From Calothrix sp. CSU_2_0 (GTDB taxonomy: Bacteria > Cyanobacteriota > Cyanobacteriia > Cyanobacteriales > Nostocaceae), in assembly GCA_012034595.1 (NCBI GenBank), contig JAAUPE010000015.1, positions 352 to 64,351 on the forward strand: a DNA stretch of 64,000 nt, given 5' to 3'. Numbering within the stretch: the stretch's first letter is position 1; each line of letters opens with the position of its first letter. The notes under the pieces are model-generated. The model was not told the origin of the DNA, ran no database searches, and was given only the letters and a program-made list of their open reading frames with translations. This document shows, piece after piece, positions 55,225-64,000 of this stretch. Both the position numbers and the translations under genes were made by a program.

Positions 55225-56634
55225 ATGAATTTAGATATCACCAATGCTAGAGCGATCGCAACAGCAGTTCAAACGGGTAAAATCTCCGCACTGCAAGTTA
55301 TTCGCACAACTTTAGAACAGATTCAAACACGAAACCAACAATTTAATTGTTTTACTGCTGTCACTACTGAAACCGCTTTACTCGACGCAGAAACAATAGA
55401 TAGCGAAATTGCAGCAGGAAAAAATCCCGGTTTACTTGCTGGAGTTCCCTTTGCAGTCAAAAACCTCTTCGATATCCAAGGTATAACAACCCTCGCAGGA
55501 GCAAAAATTAATGCCGAAAATCCCCCTGCAACCCAAGATGCAACCGCGATCGCAAAACTAAAACAAGCTGGTGCAATTCTCGTTGGTGCGTTGAATATGG
55601 ACGAGTACGCATATGGATTTGTTACCGAAAATTCCCATTACGGAGCTACTCGCAATCCCCACGATATCAACCGAGTTGCAGGAGGTTCATCAGGAGGTTC
55701 TGCTGCTGCGGTTGCTGCGGGATTAGTTCCCCTCACACTCGGTTCCGACACCAACGGTTCGATTCGCGTTCCTGCTGCATTATGTGGTGTCTATGGTTTC
55801 AAACCCACATACGGTAGATTATCCCGTGCTGGAGTCGCATTATTTTCCAGTAGTTTCGACCACATTGGCACATTTACCCGTTCCATCGCAGATACCGCGA
55901 TCGCATTCGATATTTTACAAGGTTACGACAATCGCGATCCAATTTGTACAAACCACCCCAATGTAGAGACGCGATACATCGCGTCTCTCCCCCATATTGA
56001 TAGAATTAATATTGATGGCATTAGAATTGCGATCGCAGGTGATTATTTTGCCCAAAAAGCCGAACCAGAAGCCTTAGAAGCGGTGCAAAAAGTCGCTGAT
56101 GCATTGAATATCAAAAATTACATTACCATACCCGAAAGCCATCGTGCCCGTGCTGCTGCGTTTGTAATTACTGCCGTAGAAGGAGCTAATTTACATTTCG
56201 ATAAATTGCGCGATCGCTCCCAAGATTTCGATCCAGCAACACGCGATCGCTTTTTAGCTGGTGCTTTAATTCCCAGTCAATGGTATGTGCAAGCGCAACG
56301 TTTTAGAAGATGGTATCGGGATAAAGTTAGAGAAATATTTGCCAATGTCGATATAATTATCGCTCCAACAACACCAATTACCGCACCATTAATTGGACAG
56401 GAAACAATGATTTTAGATGGTGAAGAAATCCTCGTGCGTCCATATTTAGGACAATTTACCCAACCATTATCATTTATTGGTTTACCTGTTTTATCAGTTC
56501 CAATTCTAAGAGCAAATGCGTTACCTTTAGGTGTGCAAATCATCGCAGCACCTTATAATGAAGCGAAGATTTTACAAGTTGCCGGATTATTAGAAAAAAT
56601 GGGCACTGTAGCAACCCGGTTTCTCCCCAACTAA
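55225..56634 (+). CDS. Amidase-signature enzyme, AtzE-family (GatA-like) amidohydrolase
   Basis: GGSSGGSAAAVAAG, LGSDTNGSIRVPAALCG, and the AtzE-typical NMDEYAYGFVTENSHYG. Confidence 0.85.
   Translation: MNLDITNARAIATAVQTGKISALQVIRTTLEQIQTRNQQFNCFTAVTTETALLDAETIDSEIAAGKNPGLLAGVPFAVKNLFDIQGITTLAGAKINAENPPATQDATAIAKLKQAGAILVGALNMDEYAYGFVTENSHYGATRNPHDINRVAGGSSGGSAAAVAAGLVPLTLGSDTNGSIRVPAALCGVYGFKPTYGRLSRAGVALFSSSFDHIGTFTRSIADTAIAFDILQGYDNRDPICTNHPNVETRYIASLPHIDRINIDGIRIAIAGDYFAQKAEPEALEAVQKVADALNIKNYITIPESHRARAAAFVITAVEGANLHFDKLRDRSQDFDPATRDRFLAGALIPSQWYVQAQRFRRWYRDKVREIFANVDIIIAPTTPITAPLIGQETMILDGEEILVRPYLGQFTQPLSFIGLPVLSVPILRANALPLGVQIIAAPYNEAKILQVAGLLEKMGTVATRFLPN
55966..55987. repeat. Small palindromic dispersed repeat lying in frame inside the amidase CDS
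   Basis: gagacgcgat-ac-atcgcgtctc occupies codons 248-255 (ETRYIASL). Confidence 0.7.
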
Positions 56635-56725
56635 ACATCTCTAATTAGAACGAAAAACCCGTAGCAACCCGGTTTCTCCCCAACGAAACATCTCCAATTA
56701 GAACGAAAAACCCTGAAACCGGGTT
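56608..56725. repeat. 53-bp tandem duplication overlapping the amidase stop codon, followed by an inverted 11-nt arm
   Basis: Copy 1 is 56608-60 and copy 2 is 56661-713, with 2 mismatches. aacccggtttc (56613-23 and 56666-76) faces gaaaccgggtt (56715-25). Confidence 0.9.
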
Positions 56726-56867
56726 TCTTAACCCACGTAAAAACCCCAAACAACCTAGTATTTTAGAGTGCGTTAGAACGGAGTTCATAACGCACCAAAT
56801 CCTTATAATGGTGCGTTACGCTATCGCTAACACACCCTACGTATGTTTCAAAAATCAAATATTAATC

Positions 56868-57605
56868 CTATATATCGTGTTGTTCTTTAAAAGTTCTCTC
56901 AGTCTTCTCTAAACCAAAATCTAAGCAAAGTAAATCAATACCATCAATAATTTTAGGTATCCAAATTTCGCTTATTTGTAACTCTTCAAAACAAACTTGT
57001 CTATCTTCATATTTCTTTTGAAAAAGTGCGATCGCCTTTTTTAATGGTCGTATAACCTCATAAGCTTGTTCAGCTTTATCTATGGCTATTCGAGGTATTT
57101 ATGATTGCAATCTCAAGACAGCTAAATCAATTAAATCTCTAGATTTAACACTTTTATCCATATATCTATCCGAATTTGATAGAAGTTTAGAAGTAAAACA
57201 ATCGTTTAAACTCAAACACGGAACTGGTGACCAATTTGGATATCTAGGAGCGTCTAATTGAAATCGATTTTCCGCAATAATTTCTGTTTTAATCGGCATA
57301 TTATCGACATAAACTACCATACGAATTCCATATTGATCGGTAGTAGTACGTCCTAATTCAATTTTACTTAAATCGCTAAATAATCCTTCACAGCCATTAT
57401 CAAATATAATTGTACGTAAATATCTATAACCTCCGTCATTAACAGAAGCAATAAAATCAATATCCACACTCGATCGATATTCTTCAAAATCTAAAGCAAG
57501 AATGGTTCCACCACCAAAGTAAGCAGAACCATTTTTTAGGATTTCACTATTTAAACATTGAAGAATTTTAAAAATTTGATTGTGACATTCTAGTCTAAAT
57601 TGCAT
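56868..57605 (-). pseudogene. AbiEii/AbiGii-family nucleotidyltransferase toxin interrupted by one in-frame TAA
   Basis: FGGGTILALDFEEYRSSVDIDF is the NTase motif. The ORF ends at TAA 57099-57101, but the same frame stays open for 76 more codons to TAG 56868-70. The total of about 245 aa is the normal family length. Confidence 0.7.
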
Positions 57606-57844
57606 AAATCAACAACTAACCACGAGCGATATTTTGTAGCAATTTCTTTGAGGAAATCGACTTCTTCACCCTCTAAATTATTGAATATATCGCGATATCG
57701 CCAACCCCGCTCATAGCTGCTTAACATTTCTTCTGGAGTCAGCTTATAAACATCTGCTATTTGCCAACAAATCGATTCTAAAAAAGGTAATTTTTTCGGG
57801 GGAGTGATTTCTACAATTTCGTTTAAGGTATTAGTAATATCCAT
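57590..57844 (-). CDS. Putative cognate antitoxin of the AbiEii-like gene
   Basis: 84 aa. Its 3' end overlaps the toxin start by 16 nt. The call rests on position only. Confidence 0.45.
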   Translation of the reverse strand: MDITNTLNEIVEITPPKKLPFLESICWQIADVYKLTPEEMLSSYERGWRYRDIFNNLEGEEVDFLKEIATKYRSWLVVDLCNLD

Positions 57845-57872
57845 GCGATCGCCTACTTTATATTATTCCTTT

Positions 57873-58169
57873 TTACCTTCGCTTCTGCCATTCTTTTGGA
57901 TTTCTGCTGCCATGAAAAATTGCTGTAACAATTATTCGACTCGACACAATTCGGTAGTAGATAACGTAGGGAAAACGTTTTACAATTGCACGTCTAACAT
58001 CACGATAAACAACAGAATATGCTTCTGGAAGTAGGCAAACAAGATTTAGTGTTTCGTCTACACAATCTAAAAATTCATCACCAAGTCCTAATTGTTGACT
58101 TTCGTACCAATTGAATGTTTCATCTAATTCGTCGCGTACTTGTGGACGAAATACTAATGCATAATTCAT
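57873..58169 (-). CDS. Type II toxin, RelE/ParE family
   Basis: 98 aa, F.P.V..EL.E...WY ... YRI....I.V.AIFHG.R.P. Its start overlaps the antitoxin stop by 4 nt. Confidence 0.85.
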   Translation of the reverse strand: MNYALVFRPQVRDELDETFNWYESQQLGLGDEFLDCVDETLNLVCLLPEAYSVVYRDVRRAIVKRFPYVIYYRIVSSRIIVTAIFHGSRNPKEWQKRR

Positions 58170-58390
58170 TTTTGCTTGCGGATAGAAGCTCTAATTTCCT
58201 GCCATGTCATTACATTATCAGGATTAGCTTCGCTATCGGCAATTCGGTAATCGAGTTCTTGTTTTTGCTTATCGCTGAGTTCGGGATATGTTTGTTCTGC
58301 TGCAATACTGTCCCAAATTGCTTGTACTATGCGAATTCTATCTTCAACTTTTAAGGCTATGATTTCGTTCAAGGTATTTGTGATGTCCAT
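58166..58390 (-). CDS. Addiction-module antitoxin (TIGR02574-like putative addiction module component)
   Basis: 74 aa, L..EDRIRIVQAIWDSI ... EL..R......NP. It lies directly upstream of the ParE/RelE toxin. Confidence 0.75.
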   Translation of the reverse strand: MDITNTLNEIIALKVEDRIRIVQAIWDSIAAEQTYPELSDKQKQELDYRIADSEANPDNVMTWQEIRASIRKQK

Positions 58391-58504
58391 GCGATCGCAT
58401 TTTTGGGGTTAAGGAGTGTGTAATGTATCTCAAATATAGCAAGCTTCACAGAGAGAGCATCCCAGTTTTTTGTTGTCTGTCATTAGGAGTGTAACGGATT
58501 TGGG

Positions 58505-58800
58505 CAAAGCGATCTCATAGACTCGTTTTGATGAAATATCTTGCGATTGCTTCGTCGTTCCTCCTCGCAATGACATTAAAATCCAAAATCGTCATTGCGA
58601 GCGTAACGAAGTGGAGCGTGGCAATCGCATAGACTAAATATCTTGCGATTGTTACCTAGCCCTTTCAGGGCAGCTACGCTAACGGAACGCGAAGCGCGTA
58701 GCTTGCTTCCACGTTCCTCGCAGAGGTTCCCGCAGGGTAGTGGTACGTCGTACCTCCTCGCAATGACAAGCATTTATAATCCAAAATCGAAAATCCCAGT
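58505..58800. repeat. Nest of MITE-like Nostocales repeats
   Basis: ctcgcaatgac (58564-74) faces gtcattgcgag (58591-601). A second cctcctcgcaatgaca is at 58753-68. catagact..aatatcttgcgattg is duplicated. The element is flanked by AAAATCC STRR units. Confidence 0.6.
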
Positions 58801-58887
58801 GCCAGGTATCGAATTACCAGAATGCTTATGTTACCGTAGAAATATTCTATTTTACAAATCTTTATGAAAGGCTGAAGCGCTTATATG

Positions 58888-59811
58888 TTACAGTCTACAA
58901 GTCTCTGCGCGAGAGAAGAATACAAAAGAATGCGAGCGAAGCGTACCCAGGTACAACTCACTACTAGGTATATGCCCCCCAGGAGCATTTAGATTGAAGG
59001 TGTACTCATCGTAGCTCAACCAAGAACCTCCTCTCTTCCAACCGACGCGATCGCCAAAAGCATTCCATACTTTCTCATTATATTCCTGAATACCACCTAA
59101 ACTTTGGTAAATTTCTTTTTGGACACTAAACCCAAAATGACCATTACTAGCAGATACCCAGAGTGTATCAATAATACGTAAATCCTCACAAGGGAAATTG
59201 TCTATATCTTCTACATCTAAATATCTTTGCTTTTCCTTTCCCGCAACTTGGAGCATTACCCCAAAAGTTTCTACATCAGCTTTTTTCCATTCTCCCCGCA
59301 TCAAATATTCTGCAAGCTGACTGTATTTTAAAGGTAATTTACATCTAACCAAACGAATTCCAGTTTTTTTGTCTTCTGGTAGATGATGTTGTTTTCGTTC
59401 CTTCGGTGTTGGTAATCTGTACCACGTAGCCAATTTATCAAGTTGATTATTTATATCTTTTAAGCTTAACCATACACAAAACTGATTCGCATCTTCTAAA
59501 GTGATGTCATCAACTATATTTTTTGCTGTTCCTTTAACAAAGCTTTGATTTTGCCAATTTTGCGGTGATTTATACCCAGTTTCCAACAAAAATAATTTAT
59601 ATTCTGCACAGGTAATACAGCTATTATCAACTTCCAAATTTTCATCAACCCGCACCAAATTATTTAACCTTTTTGCTAACTTAACCTCCGCAGCTAACTT
59701 AAATATTGACCCATCATCAGATTCCAAACCTGCATCAAGTTTATCACTAATTTGTTGCCTAACTTGATTATCAATTCGCCAACCTTCCTCTTCATAATCT
59801 GCCACTACCAA
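58888..59811 (-). CDS. FGE/SUMF1-like half-domain plus GUN4 domain protein
   Basis: CAEYKLFL..TGYKSP..W......DITLEDANQFCVWLS...YRLPT is FGE-sulfatase-like. WKKADVET...PCEDLRIIDTLW...GHFGFSVQ...VGW...NAPGGHIP is GUN4. There is no ATG before residue 172, and the ORF opens with TTG at 59811. Confidence 0.8.
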   Translation of the reverse strand: MVVADYEEEGWRIDNQVRQQISDKLDAGLESDDGSIFKLAAEVKLAKRLNNLVRVDENLEVDNSCITCAEYKLFLLETGYKSPQNWQNQSFVKGTAKNIVDDITLEDANQFCVWLSLKDINNQLDKLATWYRLPTPKERKQHHLPEDKKTGIRLVRCKLPLKYSQLAEYLMRGEWKKADVETFGVMLQVAGKEKQRYLDVEDIDNFPCEDLRIIDTLWVSASNGHFGFSVQKEIYQSLGGIQEYNEKVWNAFGDRVGWKRGGSWLSYDEYTFNLNAPGGHIPSSELYLGTLRSHSFVFFSRAETCRL

Positions 59812-61883
59812 AATGCATTTATCGAAGGAACAGGCATATTAATAACAGCCTGAATCAAATTAGTTGCATCATTTACTGCTGCATAAAGACGAATAGTTTC
59901 AGCCCACCAGGAATTATTGATATTACCAATCAAAATATCTTCTTGATTTGATTCTTTGATTTCAACCGCAGATAAATATTCTTGAAAACTCAAGTGAGCA
60001 AATTCATAAATACCAATTTCCTTTTCTACCAACAATCCGCAATCATCACGAATATGCTTGATAAAAGCTTCAGCATTTGGAAAGTGTTGCGGTAATGTAG
60101 TCAATTGTTGCTGAATATAACCAACACCTTCAGCTAAATTAAATTCACGCACTTTTTTTTGCATTAATACTAATGCTAATTCTTGCAAAACAGACTGTTT
60201 TTGTGAAGCAGTTAAAGTATCATGTATATTTTTCGCACGTTGACGCTTCTCCAGCAGTATTTGACAAATCTCTTTATAAAGCTCAACTCTTTTCCCCGGT
60301 AAAACATTACCCCGACGGTGAACTGTGGCAATCATTGTTAGCAACAAAGGATTTACAGCCATCGCAGCAATAGCGCGACTATTTTGTGAATTTTGAAGTC
60401 GATTAATTAACTTATTTGCCTGATTTGTTGCTGCTTGTTTCACTCCTTCGTCATTTTGTCCAGCACGGCTTTTTATCTCGGTTTGCAAATACCAACTATG
60501 CAAAAACTCCTTGATTTGTTCGCGGTTAAATGGTTGTACTTCTAACTCACTAACTTGAACTTGTCGCTGCAATTCTCGATAGCCATTAGGACGAGAAGTA
60601 AGAATAAATGTAGTATCTGGATAAGCTTGCATTTGCTTATCTACCCAAGTTCTCACATGCTGACGCTGGTTTTTATCGGCAACTTCATCCAACCCATCCA
60701 GCAAAATTAAAAACCTATTTTTCTGTAAATTTTTCCGCAACCAATGTACAGGTGGATTTAGTGGTTTATTATTAATTTTGAGTTTTTCAAGCTGCTGTTT
60801 AATTAAATCTTCCAAAGATGGATTTTGACTAGAAATCTCGTCTCTAATTTCCCGAAGATAAAATAATATCGGAATTAATTGCGGTGGTTTAGGATTGATT
60901 TTACTTTCTTGTTTGGTTGCATAAATTAGCGTCAAGTGTCTCAGAAGCGTTGTTTTTCCAGAACCTGGTCTACCTAAAATTACTATTTTATCAAATTGAT
61001 GATTTTGGTTTTTATTTGCTGCCAAAAAATCCCAGATTGATTTTTCTAGATTATTATCTAGATTATTTGCATGAGGGATAATGTCTTGCTTTGCATTATT
61101 AACGCTATTGGCTGATATTTTCAACTGGACAAAAACATTCTTTAATTCCAAAGTCCACTCATTATCTAAACCTTGAGTTTCAAAATCTCGACATTTATAT
61201 TCTAAAGCTTTGTAATAATCACGTTGAAATGGCGAAATGACATCTTCAAACTTATTTTTTATCCAAGTCGCAGCACTAACAGCACCTTGCTTCTGATACT
61301 GCTCCCAAACTGCGGAAAGTTCTGCAATCAAGGTTTTAAAAAAGTCTTGAGCGGCAATTATTCCTGTAATTATTCCAGTCAAAACTAATGACACAACTGC
61401 CGGAATTGATTGTTTTGCTAAAATAAAATGTGCGGTTAAAAATAAACCCGTGCTTGGAATCAACCATATCAAGTATTTTCGCAAATTTCTTGGCAAAATT
61501 AATACTGGTGGTAGTATTGCTCCCAATGCAAACATTATCAAAGATATATAAGAAATCGCTGCACTAAATTCTGTTGGTACTAACTTCAAATACAGTAAAG
61601 CAGTTAATATTCCTCCTCCCAGCAAAGGTAAAAATCCACCAATCCAATTATTAGCTCTTGGATTAGAGATGGAATTATTAGATGTTGAATTTTGCTGCTG
61701 GGAATCGTTGGATAAAACAGTTAAAATTATTTGGAAAATTATACAGCCAATTGTTAAACCCAAAATAGTTGAGTTGGATACGCTATCAGATTTGGGTTGC
61801 AATTGATTGATTAACCAACCTAGTACACCATTACTGGAAATTAGCAGCAATGGAAGAAGTAAGTTTTTAGTCCATCCCGACAT
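59805..61883 (-). CDS. NACHT-family STAND NTPase with an N-terminal multi-pass membrane region
   Basis: Residues 1 to about 200 form 5-6 hydrophobic helices. Walker A is ILGRPGSGKTTLL and Walker B is FLILLDGLDEV, followed by TSRP. There is no C-terminal repeat domain. Confidence 0.85.
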   Translation of the reverse strand: MSGWTKNLLLPLLLISSNGVLGWLINQLQPKSDSVSNSTILGLTIGCIIFQIILTVLSNDSQQQNSTSNNSISNPRANNWIGGFLPLLGGGILTALLYLKLVPTEFSAAISYISLIMFALGAILPPVLILPRNLRKYLIWLIPSTGLFLTAHFILAKQSIPAVVSLVLTGIITGIIAAQDFFKTLIAELSAVWEQYQKQGAVSAATWIKNKFEDVISPFQRDYYKALEYKCRDFETQGLDNEWTLELKNVFVQLKISANSVNNAKQDIIPHANNLDNNLEKSIWDFLAANKNQNHQFDKIVILGRPGSGKTTLLRHLTLIYATKQESKINPKPPQLIPILFYLREIRDEISSQNPSLEDLIKQQLEKLKINNKPLNPPVHWLRKNLQKNRFLILLDGLDEVADKNQRQHVRTWVDKQMQAYPDTTFILTSRPNGYRELQRQVQVSELEVQPFNREQIKEFLHSWYLQTEIKSRAGQNDEGVKQAATNQANKLINRLQNSQNSRAIAAMAVNPLLLTMIATVHRRGNVLPGKRVELYKEICQILLEKRQRAKNIHDTLTASQKQSVLQELALVLMQKKVREFNLAEGVGYIQQQLTTLPQHFPNAEAFIKHIRDDCGLLVEKEIGIYEFAHLSFQEYLSAVEIKESNQEDILIGNINNSWWAETIRLYAAVNDATNLIQAVINMPVPSINAFW

Positions 61884-62795: not shown

Positions 62796-64000
62796 TTACA
62801 AATCAACAAAATTACGTTTCTTTTTCTTTTGTTTAGACTTGTTTTTATCATTCTCCTTATCTTTTATACTACCAACTTTTCCAAAGCCGCGAATTTCTTC
62901 TTTATCATTCGATTCTACTAATTTTGCAGCAACAGAATTTGCTTCTTCTCTAATTTCCGTCGAAGTTTTATCAATCTCATTTTGTGTTGGTAAATTACTG
63001 ATTCCTTCCACAACATCATCCGCAACATTAACCCCAACTTGCATTTCCTCTACAGCAATTTTAGCTTCGGGAATAACATCAATATCCGAAATAGTTTCTT
63101 CCATAACTTCTTCTGTAATCAACAAATTATTTTCAACAATATCTGCTTCTTCGCTATTCTCTACACTTATTTCTGTACCTAATTCTGTAACCTCTTGCAT
63201 CTCAACTGATACTTTCTCAGCAGCATTAATTCCAATGCTATAATTATTTGAATCATTGGAATTATTTGCGATCGCGAATTTTTCCCGAAGGAATATCGCG
63301 TCATTCAAAGTCATGCTTTCTTGTGCTTCAATATCTGGATTATCAACCACAGAAATTGGTGTCGTGAATTCTACAACCTCAACTTGTAACTCCTGCAATT
63401 CATCATCAGAACCAATACCCAAACTTTGTTTAACTTCCTCCCAACTACCAACAATATCTTCCGCAACTTGATTGACTGCAAATGCCAATTTAATCACAGA
63501 AGCAGAATTTTTTGCTTCCAAATTTATCAATGCAGCAACAATAAAACCATTCAATTCGGGAGGACTTTCTTGATAATTTTCTAACTGCCGAGTCAGCGCT
63601 AAGACACAATTATCCCGCAGATTTTCATTTTGTTTAGCAATTTCTTCCAAACTATTAATCGCATTTACCCGTGAAAATAACGGATGGGAATCATCAGCTA
63701 AATAACAAGCAAGTGGAGAAATTGCCGCAACACCAATTTTGCTAAAAACCTTCGGTAATTCTTCGCTAACTAAATCATTATCTTCCAACTCATGAAATAA
63801 TTGAATTAAAGGCGCAATATTTGCGGTAAACTCCGCGATCGCACTTTCTGAAACTAAAACTTCTGAACCTAACTGTCCTAATGCACGCCAAGCATGAATA
63901 GCAGCCCATACATCCAGACTACCAGAATCAGCATTCAACAAAGCGCGATCGCACCCCATTCTAATCAAATCAGGTATATGTTGCGAACTTAAACCTAATT
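62796..64000 (-). CDS. Hypothetical helical-repeat protein with an acidic low-complexity region and a poly-Lys C-terminus; 5' end outside the window
   Basis: The frame stays open to nt 64000, beyond the TTG at 63968. The N-terminal part looks alpha-helical and HEAT-like. The C-terminus is E/V/I-rich and ends in KNKSKQKKKKR. Confidence 0.5.
   Translation of the reverse strand, partial: LGLSSQHIPDLIRMGCDRALLNADSGSLDVWAAIHAWRALGQLGSEVLVSESAIAEFTANIAPLIQLFHELEDNDLVSEELPKVFSKIGVAAISPLACYLADDSHPLFSRVNAINSLEEIAKQNENLRDNCVLALTRQLENYQESPPELNGFIVAALINLEAKNSASVIKLAFAVNQVAEDIVGSWEEVKQSLGIGSDDELQELQVEVVEFTTPISVVDNPDIEAQESMTLNDAIFLREKFAIANNSNDSNNYSIGINAAEKVSVEMQEVTELGTEISVENSEEADIVENNLLITEEVMEETISDIDVIPEAKIAVEEMQVGVNVADDVVEGISNLPTQNEIDKTSTEIREEANSVAAKLVESNDKEEIRGFGKVGSIKDKENDKNKSKQKKKKRNFVDL

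Follow-up and report, generated by a model that had tools for sequence, protein, structure and literature searches.

A probable single gene for a membrane-embedded NACHT-GUN4 protein in Calothrix sp. CSU_2_0, apparently split by a one-nucleotide indel

Organisation of the locus

In this study, we examined a 64-kb stretch of DNA from the metagenome-assembled genome (MAG) of Calothrix sp. CSU_2_0, hereafter the window, in which two overlapping open reading frames (ORFs) encode a membrane NACHT protein and a GUN4-containing protein. ORF1 (59805..61883, (-); 692 aa; NJR15163.1) carries transmembrane helices and a NACHT module, and ORF2 (58888..59811, (-); 307 aa; listed start TTG) carries an FGE-like segment and a GUN4 domain. 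The two share an overlap of 7 nt, as had been reported in a first-pass annotation of this DNA, which took them for a NACHT NTPase with a separate, trans-acting GUN4 sensor. We read the pair, with a probability of roughly 80%, as a single gene for a membrane-embedded STAND protein of the bNACHT class, about 998 aa in length, that is split by a one-nucleotide indel; the narrower statement, that there is a single gene and that the indel is the cause of the split, is nearly certain. With one T restored, the whole ancestral gene (58888..61883, (-)) comprises 998 codons and is laid out as a six-helix transmembrane module (6TM), a NACHT module, a minimal FGS/CLec domain and a GUN4 domain.

Among proteins, ORF1 is most similar to P0003-P0008 (77-87% identity), each a single chain of 922-1032 aa in which NACHT and GUN4 are both present (P0007 is listed as 933 aa, with a query coverage of 89%), and the orthologue in the complete genome of Calothrix sp. 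PCC 6303 is a single protein of 1,001 aa. The linkage of the transmembrane NACHT and GUN4 parts in other genomes, which had been put forward as worth surveying, is thus one of outright fusion in all relatives at 77-87% identity. The fused orthologues run continuously across the junction (...PSINAFLVVADYEEEGW..., also given as ...NMPVPSINAFLVVADYEEEGWRIDNQ...); in the window, ORF1 terminates in ...PSINAFW* and ORF2 starts with (M)VVADYEEEGW. At the DNA level, the window reads GCATTTTGGTAGTGG where three orthologous loci read GCATTTTTGGTAGT. Two of these (L001 and L002) are independent assemblies of PCC 6303, and the third (L003) is a metagenome contig syntenic with the window, having amidase, AtzG-like, ABG-transporter and AbiE neighbours in common with it. 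The frameshift site (59810..59813, (-)) is a T4 run in the window and a T5 run at all three orthologous loci. Loss of one T gives TGG-TAG, which ends ORF1, and the TTG "start" of ORF2 is an ancestral Leu codon; when the T is re-inserted, a 998-aa ORF with zero further stops is obtained.

The two-gene appearance therefore exists because one T is missing from the T5 run in the linker. The first ATG in ORF2 is reached only at about residue 170, no Shine-Dalgarno-like purine-rich stretch was seen 5' of its TTG on reading the sequence, and neither of the two start variants of ORF2 that were tried was present in the public protein collection. Judged from these sequence comparisons, the split in the window is a loss-of-function allele or an assembly error and not a designed two-component arrangement, and the proposal of a separate GUN4 protein supplied as a sensor in trans is given up on the same grounds. 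A single polypeptide holds the tripartite layout in every close orthologue and after repair of the sequence; in the window as assembled, the sensor lies in a separate frame. Programmed frameshifting and transcriptional slippage were also considered and were rejected by reasoning from the sequence: a -1 shift would be needed on A-TTT-TGG, no slippery heptamer is present, and a T4 run is too short.

Transmembrane module and NACHT core

The 692-aa ORF's N-terminal part, noted at first for its hydrophobic helices, contains six of them in residues 3-177 according to a Kyte-Doolittle scan and AlphaFold. This six-helix transmembrane module (61353..61877, (-)) is delimited by hydropathy, loop charges, invariant columns and AlphaFold helices, and polar residues (N18, N26, Q62 and N79) are conserved inside the helices. 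A topology check on the same region returned six helices with a predicted N-in/C-in arrangement, based on loop charges, which would place the NACHT module in the cytoplasm.

The NACHT NTPase core (60492..60986, (-); residues 300-464 of ORF1) was identified by Pfam, by its motifs and by Foldseek. The match to PF05729 (E 8.9e-23) scored 81.4 bits against a cut-off of 26.7, and the P-loop recognised in the first-pass annotation proved canonical, with Walker A at 60948-60974 (-) (GRPGSGKTT, residues 304-312) and Walker B at 60681-60710 (-) (LILLDGLDEV, residues 392-401); a TSRP motif lies inside the core at 60588-60599 (-). The best structural matches of the NACHT module in Foldseek were NOD2, NLRP3 and NLRC4 (E 1e-9 to 1e-7). 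It was this fold search that placed the module, as comparison of the ORF1 sequence with PDB chains yielded no more than a chance P-loop match. The NACHT-associated helical and winged-helix domains follow (59883..60491, (-); residues 465-667) and close with the family signature WWAETIRLY. Pfam detected no WD40, TPR or LRR repeats in ORF1, in agreement with the earlier description that it ends without them. A match of NCBIfam EruA, at 47 bits against a cut-off of 1000, is far under threshold, and a literature search on it gave nothing relevant.

The FGS/CLec-like and GUN4-like domains

The FGS/CLec (FGE-sulfatase-like) domain occupies 59332..59664 (-), corresponding to about residues 50-160 of ORF2. 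It matches PF03781 (FGE-sulfatase) only partially (E 1.6e-5; residues 53-139; profile positions 32-118 of 255), and Foldseek aligned 83-123 columns of it to ToxD or FGE at E 0.3 or worse. The motifs ITCAEYKLF, FCVWLS and WYRLPT are found in order, followed by the terminal strand GIRLVRC (ORF2 residues 151-157). The same N-terminal part (ITCAEYQLF...FCxWLS...YRLPT) is seen in relatives that lack GUN4, where it leads into a long, low-complexity insert of LxxDL-type repeats, a hydrophobic segment and the strand ...PAWEGIRIVRE, a terminus that is conserved in cyanobacteria, Chloroflexota, Thiomargarita and Methylovulum. In these relatives (L009, L010, L012, L022, L035, L042 and L059), the insert measures 100-250 residues and consists of LxxDL/NRDL-type short tandem repeats. 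In the window, GIRLVRC comes directly after a short loop, and the domain is not a complete FGE-sulfatase/CLec domain. The description of it as an FGE/SUMF1-like half-domain fits the partial Pfam match but not the presence of the terminal strand; it is a minimal CLec fold in which the usual variable insert has collapsed, and not truly a half-domain.

The GUN4-like domain (58945..59331, (-); ORF2 residues 161-289) is complete, as had been claimed: it matches PF05419 at E 1.3e-41, and the AlphaFold model of ORF2 (pLDDT 85, pTM 0.86) matches GUN4 crystal structures in Foldseek (4XKC at E 5e-9; 7E2R at a TM-score of 0.79). With GUN4 of Synechocystis (Sll0558; PDB 1Y6I, 4XKB, 1Z3X) and its paralogues, such as Sll1380, it has the core 'cupped hand' fold in common (E 1e-15 to 1e-18; TM-score 0.75-0.79). 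In Synechocystis GUN4, Arg214 was reported to be "absolutely essential" for both porphyrins tested (PMC1084334), and an LxNxLR motif with Asn211 is needed for bilin binding and is missing from all GUN4 paralogues, for which a loss of bilin binding has been proposed and which are reported not to complement gun4 (PMC10156173). In an ungapped alignment to the crystal-structure sequences, the window reads GHIP-SSELYLGTLRS, with Glu where Asn211 would stand and Leu in place of Arg214. Among 20 NACHT-GUN4 relatives examined, 14 have a locatable GH[LIV]P anchor, and none of the 14 keeps the LxNxLR motif.

Compared with canonical GUN4, the window domain is therefore without Arg214, without LxNxLR/Asn211 and without the N-terminal helical bundle, and it is joined to a STAND NTPase; its behaviour is that of the GUN4 paralogue clade. 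It is a paralogue-type domain, one for which porphyrin or bilin binding of the canonical kind is not to be taken for granted, and the earlier label of a tetrapyrrole-binding module does not hold once the absence of these residues is considered. Canonical tetrapyrrole sensing is, in our judgement, improbable. Since the domain lacks the contact residues and has a hypervariable loop at the corresponding place, neither protoporphyrin nor Mg-protoporphyrin nor bilin, bound as in canonical GUN4, is likely to be the ligand.

Hypervariable cassette and conserved 3' block

Directly after the conserved APGGHIP anchor, where GUN4 has its ligand loop, lies a hypervariable cassette (58920..58966, (-)), 47 nt long in the window. 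Eight orthologous alleles show no detectable homology to one another in this cassette, with lengths of roughly 35-90 nt, and most of the remaining gene is about 85% identical among them at the DNA level. Identity within the cassette loop is 0.20-0.31, against 0.37-0.44 in other indel-rich surface loops, and the cassette may represent the extreme of ordinary loop turnover. On its 3' side stands a highly conserved block of 125 nt (58795..58919, (-)) that extends across the stop codon; its reading frame varies between alleles, all three frames being used, with the ends ..FSRAETCRL*, ..FSSLAQKLVNCNI* and ..LLSRRDL*.

A diversity-generating retroelement (DGR) was tried as the source of the cassette and rejected, as neither a template repeat nor, in a crude motif scan, a reverse-transcriptase candidate was found in the 64-kb window, and the cassettes differ in length, unlike DGR variable regions. 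The 3' 513 nt of the gene are not repeated elsewhere in the window. The long ORFs of the window gave no obvious reverse-transcriptase candidate in a crude scan for Y/FxDD motifs, no reverse-transcriptase profile search having been run. As for a function of the 3' block at the nucleic acid level, RNAalifold returned -7.6 kcal/mol and saw no covariation, Rfam matched nothing beyond a sub-threshold chance hit within the coding region, a consensus scan found no terminator, and no second copy of the block was found, a metagenome scan included.

Distribution of the family and natural fission of the linker

The family survey drew on a scan of a single genome for each species, from which the 80 best loci were inspected. 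In most of these 80 relatives, the NACHT module is succeeded by an FGS-like segment; their sources are cyanobacteria, Chloroflexota, Thiomargarita, Methylovulum and some actinobacteria. Of the 80 loci, about 20 have GUN4 after the FGS-like segment; these are mostly cyanobacterial, and one is from an unclassified 'uncultured bacterium' MAG.

Nine intact-looking loci have the FGS segment in a separate downstream ORF, the transmembrane NACHT ORF then being about 605-718 aa long. Loci of this two-gene form are L004:8001-11341, L006, L010, L014, L022 and L072, and also L041, L042 and L044. The breaks fall within the helical linker that joins the NACHT module to the FGS-like domain (59665..59882, (-)), which also holds the frameshift of the window. 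In Microcoleus, Symploca and Tolypothrix, the break comes after ...DLES[RQ], 29 residues downstream of the window frameshift, with an ATGA stop/start overlap conserved across genera. In the three Chloroflexota/Prochloraceae loci, it comes about 15 residues beyond the Microcoleus-type site, which suggests that the two kinds of break are independent fissions. The linker between NACHT and sensor is thus a natural fission point, and sister clades do have a trans-encoded sensor, with partners that lack GUN4.

The Microcoleus-type two-gene clade (transmembrane NACHT protein of about 714 aa, with a putatively translationally coupled partner) is a close comparison for the arrangement in the window; in Microcoleus vaginatus, the two proteins measure 714 aa and 399 aa. 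It has the same 6TM-NACHT core, at 50-56% identity over the full length, its break lies in the same linker, and its partner protein begins with the same FGS-like N-terminal segment. The partner then carries a long LxxDL-type repeat insert and the ...PAWEGIRIVRE end where the window has GUN4. The window break itself is of another sort: it lies at another position, was made by a 1-nt deletion, uses TTG without the conserved ATG/stop overlap, and does not occur in close relatives.

Genomic neighbourhood and decay of the gene

The gene is flanked by a GNAT gene, a ParE/antitoxin pair and an AbiEii gene (Pfam). The flanking genes in PCC 6303 differ from those of the locus as found in the window, in L003 and in Calothrix sp. 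NIES-4101. An accessory context, as first described, is well founded: toxin-antitoxin (TA) modules adjoin the gene, a GNAT gene is present, the flanks vary between genomes, and small dispersed repeats occur at 58523-58790.

The AbiEii gene (56862-57605, (-)) has an in-frame TAA at 57099-57101 (LRLQS*IPRIAIDK); AbiEii of L003 has Pro at that position and is an intact protein of 249 aa (LRLQSPIPESAIDK). The disrupted AbiEii is a second broken accessory gene within 3 kb. Copies of the NACHT-GUN4 gene itself are disrupted in other genomes. In the finished genome of Calothrix sp. NIES-4101 (AP018280; L089:4001-8322), the syntenic copy, with GNAT upstream and amidase downstream, is cut by a DDE_Tnp_1 transposase of an insertion sequence (IS) into pieces of 456 aa and 546 aa. 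On the metagenome contig L091:4001-8080, the gene lies in three pieces, with a DDE_3 transposase and a further break, and the Microseira copy (L008) has a nonsense codon within WWAETIRLY. Such repeated inactivation, by frameshift, IS insertion and nonsense codon, is as expected of a costly or autotoxic accessory immune gene.

Other features of the neighbourhood were recorded. The stretch that separates the ParE module from the NACHT-GUN4 gene (58523-58790) is filled by three pairs of direct repeats of 25-28 nt, about 100-200 nt apart; PCC 6303, L003 and L087 have a convergent ORF of about 65 aa at this position instead of the repeats. Two antitoxin-like ORFs, 57590..57844 (-) and 58166..58390 (-), lie upstream of AbiEii and ParE, and both begin with MDITNTLNEI. 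They have a common 42-nt 5' end (57811-57852 and 58357-58398) that includes a HIP1 GCGATCGC site, which suggests that a promoter-plus-5' segment was duplicated or recombined between the two TA modules. A perfect-register tandem duplication with a 53-nt unit, 96% identical, lies at 56608-56713 and overlaps the last 27 nt of the amidase gene (end 56634), continuing downstream from there. Finally, a 390-aa ORF at 62796-63968 (-) has a strongly acidic low-complexity C-terminal half and a lysine-rich tail, with no Pfam match.

Discussion

With reference to the literature, bacterial NACHT proteins have been classed by their C-terminal sensors, with cyanobacterial GUN4 under 'other sensor domain' (Kibby et al., bioRxiv 10.1101/2022.07.19.500537), and FGS and GUN4 have been described as modules that cyanobacterial conflict systems use (Kaur et al., PMC7159879, PMC8195603). 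Both groups list cyanobacterial NACHT-GUN4 proteins and propose, as a prediction, that they sense photosynthesis status or viral perturbation. FGE-sulfatase-like sensors are also listed in a 2026 STAND survey. The novelty of composition suggested in the first-pass annotation must consequently be dropped, and the 6TM / minimal-FGS / GUN4 combination is a member of an already catalogued class. With the bNACHT class of Kibby et al., the gene in its intact, single-chain form has in common the NACHT core with Walker A and B, the tripartite layout, the C-terminal FGS and GUN4 domains and the transmembrane segments; it differs in that the window copy is frameshifted.

Related architectures are found in the DGR-diversified NACHT/STAND-CLec/FGS proteins, in which FGS comes directly after the STAND module, sometimes with transmembrane segments (Kaur et al. 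2020, PMC7159879; Dore et al. 2024, PMC10907252). The taxon spectrum of our family is as in those proteins, namely filamentous cyanobacteria, Chloroflexota, Thiomargarita and Beggiatoa-like bacteria, but the FGS domain of the window is minimal and without a variable region, and GUN4 is appended to it. NACHT-CLec proteins, some of them with transmembrane segments, have been presented as putative antigen sensors in multicellular bacteria, the STAND-associated CLec domains being experimentally uncharacterised (Dore et al. 2024, PMC10907252). Other cyanobacterial GUN4 fusions (Ser/Thr kinase-GUN4, caspase/Peptidase_C14-GUN4 and TIR-GUN4) have the C-terminal GUN4-like module in common with the window gene and differ in the N-terminal partner.

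A match of ORF2 to PD-T4-6 (PADLOC PDLC04062; E 8e-42), the model of a Ser/Thr-kinase defence protein of E. coli, was considered as evidence of defence and set aside, as it covers only model positions 263-447, the GUN4-like part. Neither ORF has a Pkinase match, and Vassallo et al. describe only a kinase for PD-T4-6. In tblastn searches, the only plasmids with GUN4-like sequence were cyanobacterial ones, and phages had none. The match probably reflects cyanobacterial kinase-GUN4 sequences included in the model, which may call kinase-GUN4 or bare GUN4 proteins PD-T4-6 in cyanobacterial genomes.

For the bNACHT-class protein that we reconstruct, we lean slightly towards a conflict function. Of the earlier proposal of an NLR-type conflict protein, the multi-helix transmembrane / NTPase / FGS+GUN4 layout, the accessory context and the published conflict assignment stand up, but the two-gene system with a sensor in trans does not survive. 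Several observations weigh against our reading. Our literature search found no experiments on any NACHT-GUN4 or NACHT-FGS protein, the defence role being drawn from architecture and relatives, and PADLOC gave no specific defence-system match for the NACHT protein. For the transmembrane module, only family members and fragments were matched, with no relatives detected outside this NACHT family, and AlphaFold confidence was moderate (pLDDT roughly 40-80); that the module is the effector is accordingly a tentative view, and it may instead serve as an anchor or a membrane sensor. ORF2 is open for 307 codons, as would be expected in equal measure if the mutation were very recent, if the assembly were wrong or if the split form still worked.

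How the split itself came about admits several explanations. A change of homopolymer length in a MAG is a classic artefact, and it is conceivable that the organism has an intact T5 gene from which one base was dropped in the consensus: the lesion alters a homopolymer by 1 nt in length, the sequence comes from a MAG, the gene has 71 A/T runs of at least 4 bases, and there are no other lesions in 3 kb. Against this, AbiEii next door carries a nonsense codon made by substitution, which is beyond homopolymer error, and the same gene is independently and clearly disrupted in finished genomes, as by the IS insertion in NIES-4101. We hold an artefact to be rather unlikely and a genuine loss-of-function allele to be fairly probable. 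A functional two-component NLR, in which transmembrane NACHT and FGS-GUN4 proteins are made separately, ORF2 being re-initiated at the overlapping TTG, and assemble in trans, would have a precedent in the Microcoleus/Symploca/Tolypothrix sister clade, naturally split in the same linker with its ATGA overlap and FGS-type partner ORF, and in the further splits of the three Chloroflexota/Prochloraceae loci; ORF2 is open over its entire length, and a 7-nt overlap would suit translational coupling. Yet the relatives at 77-87% identity are all fused and the window split is a single-base deletion, its start is a TTG with no Shine-Dalgarno-like sequence where the natural splits start with ATG (preceded by GGAAAG or AGAAAG in 3/5 clade members), the partners in the natural splits carry repeat inserts and no GUN4, and neighbouring and orthologous copies show ordinary decay. 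We give this arrangement very little credence. Only marginally less doubtful is a combined possibility, that fission of the linker is tolerated as in the sister clades, so that the frameshifted allele may still work as a two-component NLR, and that the cassette is a deliberately diversified, antigen-receptor-like, non-DGR recognition loop in place of the GUN4 ligand-contact loop.

A role outside immunity was also weighed, in which the protein would sit anchored in the membrane as a STAND regulator, sense tetrapyrrole intermediates by means of GUN4 and adjust chlorophyll/haem metabolism or thylakoid biogenesis. Bona fide GUN4 is a porphyrin and bilin binder and an activator of Mg-chelatase, its fold is conserved in the window domain, and the protein is membrane-anchored. 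However, the domain has no equivalents of Arg214 and Asn211 and its loop is hypervariable, failure to complement gun4 is reported for GUN4 paralogues, the distribution is patchy, the genomic context varies and inactivation recurs, and in sister proteins GUN4 is swapped for repeat inserts or full FGE domains, which is the pattern of an exchangeable sensor. Such a regulator is therefore very unlikely in our estimation.

If the intact single-chain protein works by analogy with NLR and other STAND proteins, its C-terminal FGS-GUN4 module would keep the NACHT module monomeric, ADP-bound and autoinhibited at the membrane. The autoinhibition would be lifted when a ligand binds or a guarded one is lost, and ATP-dependent oligomerisation of NACHT would then cluster the six-helix transmembrane modules. 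The clustered modules would compromise membrane integrity, leading to a growth stop of the infected cell in the filament.

What we describe is a broken copy of a catalogued single-gene architecture, and not a new two-gene NLR with a trans-acting tetrapyrrole sensor. The GUN4 domains in cyanobacterial conflict proteins lack the porphyrin/bilin-binding residues, and the published idea of chlorophyll-precursor sensing is thus in need of a direct test. The fission point in the linker, for its part, offers a ready-made system for asking whether bacterial NLR sensors act in trans.

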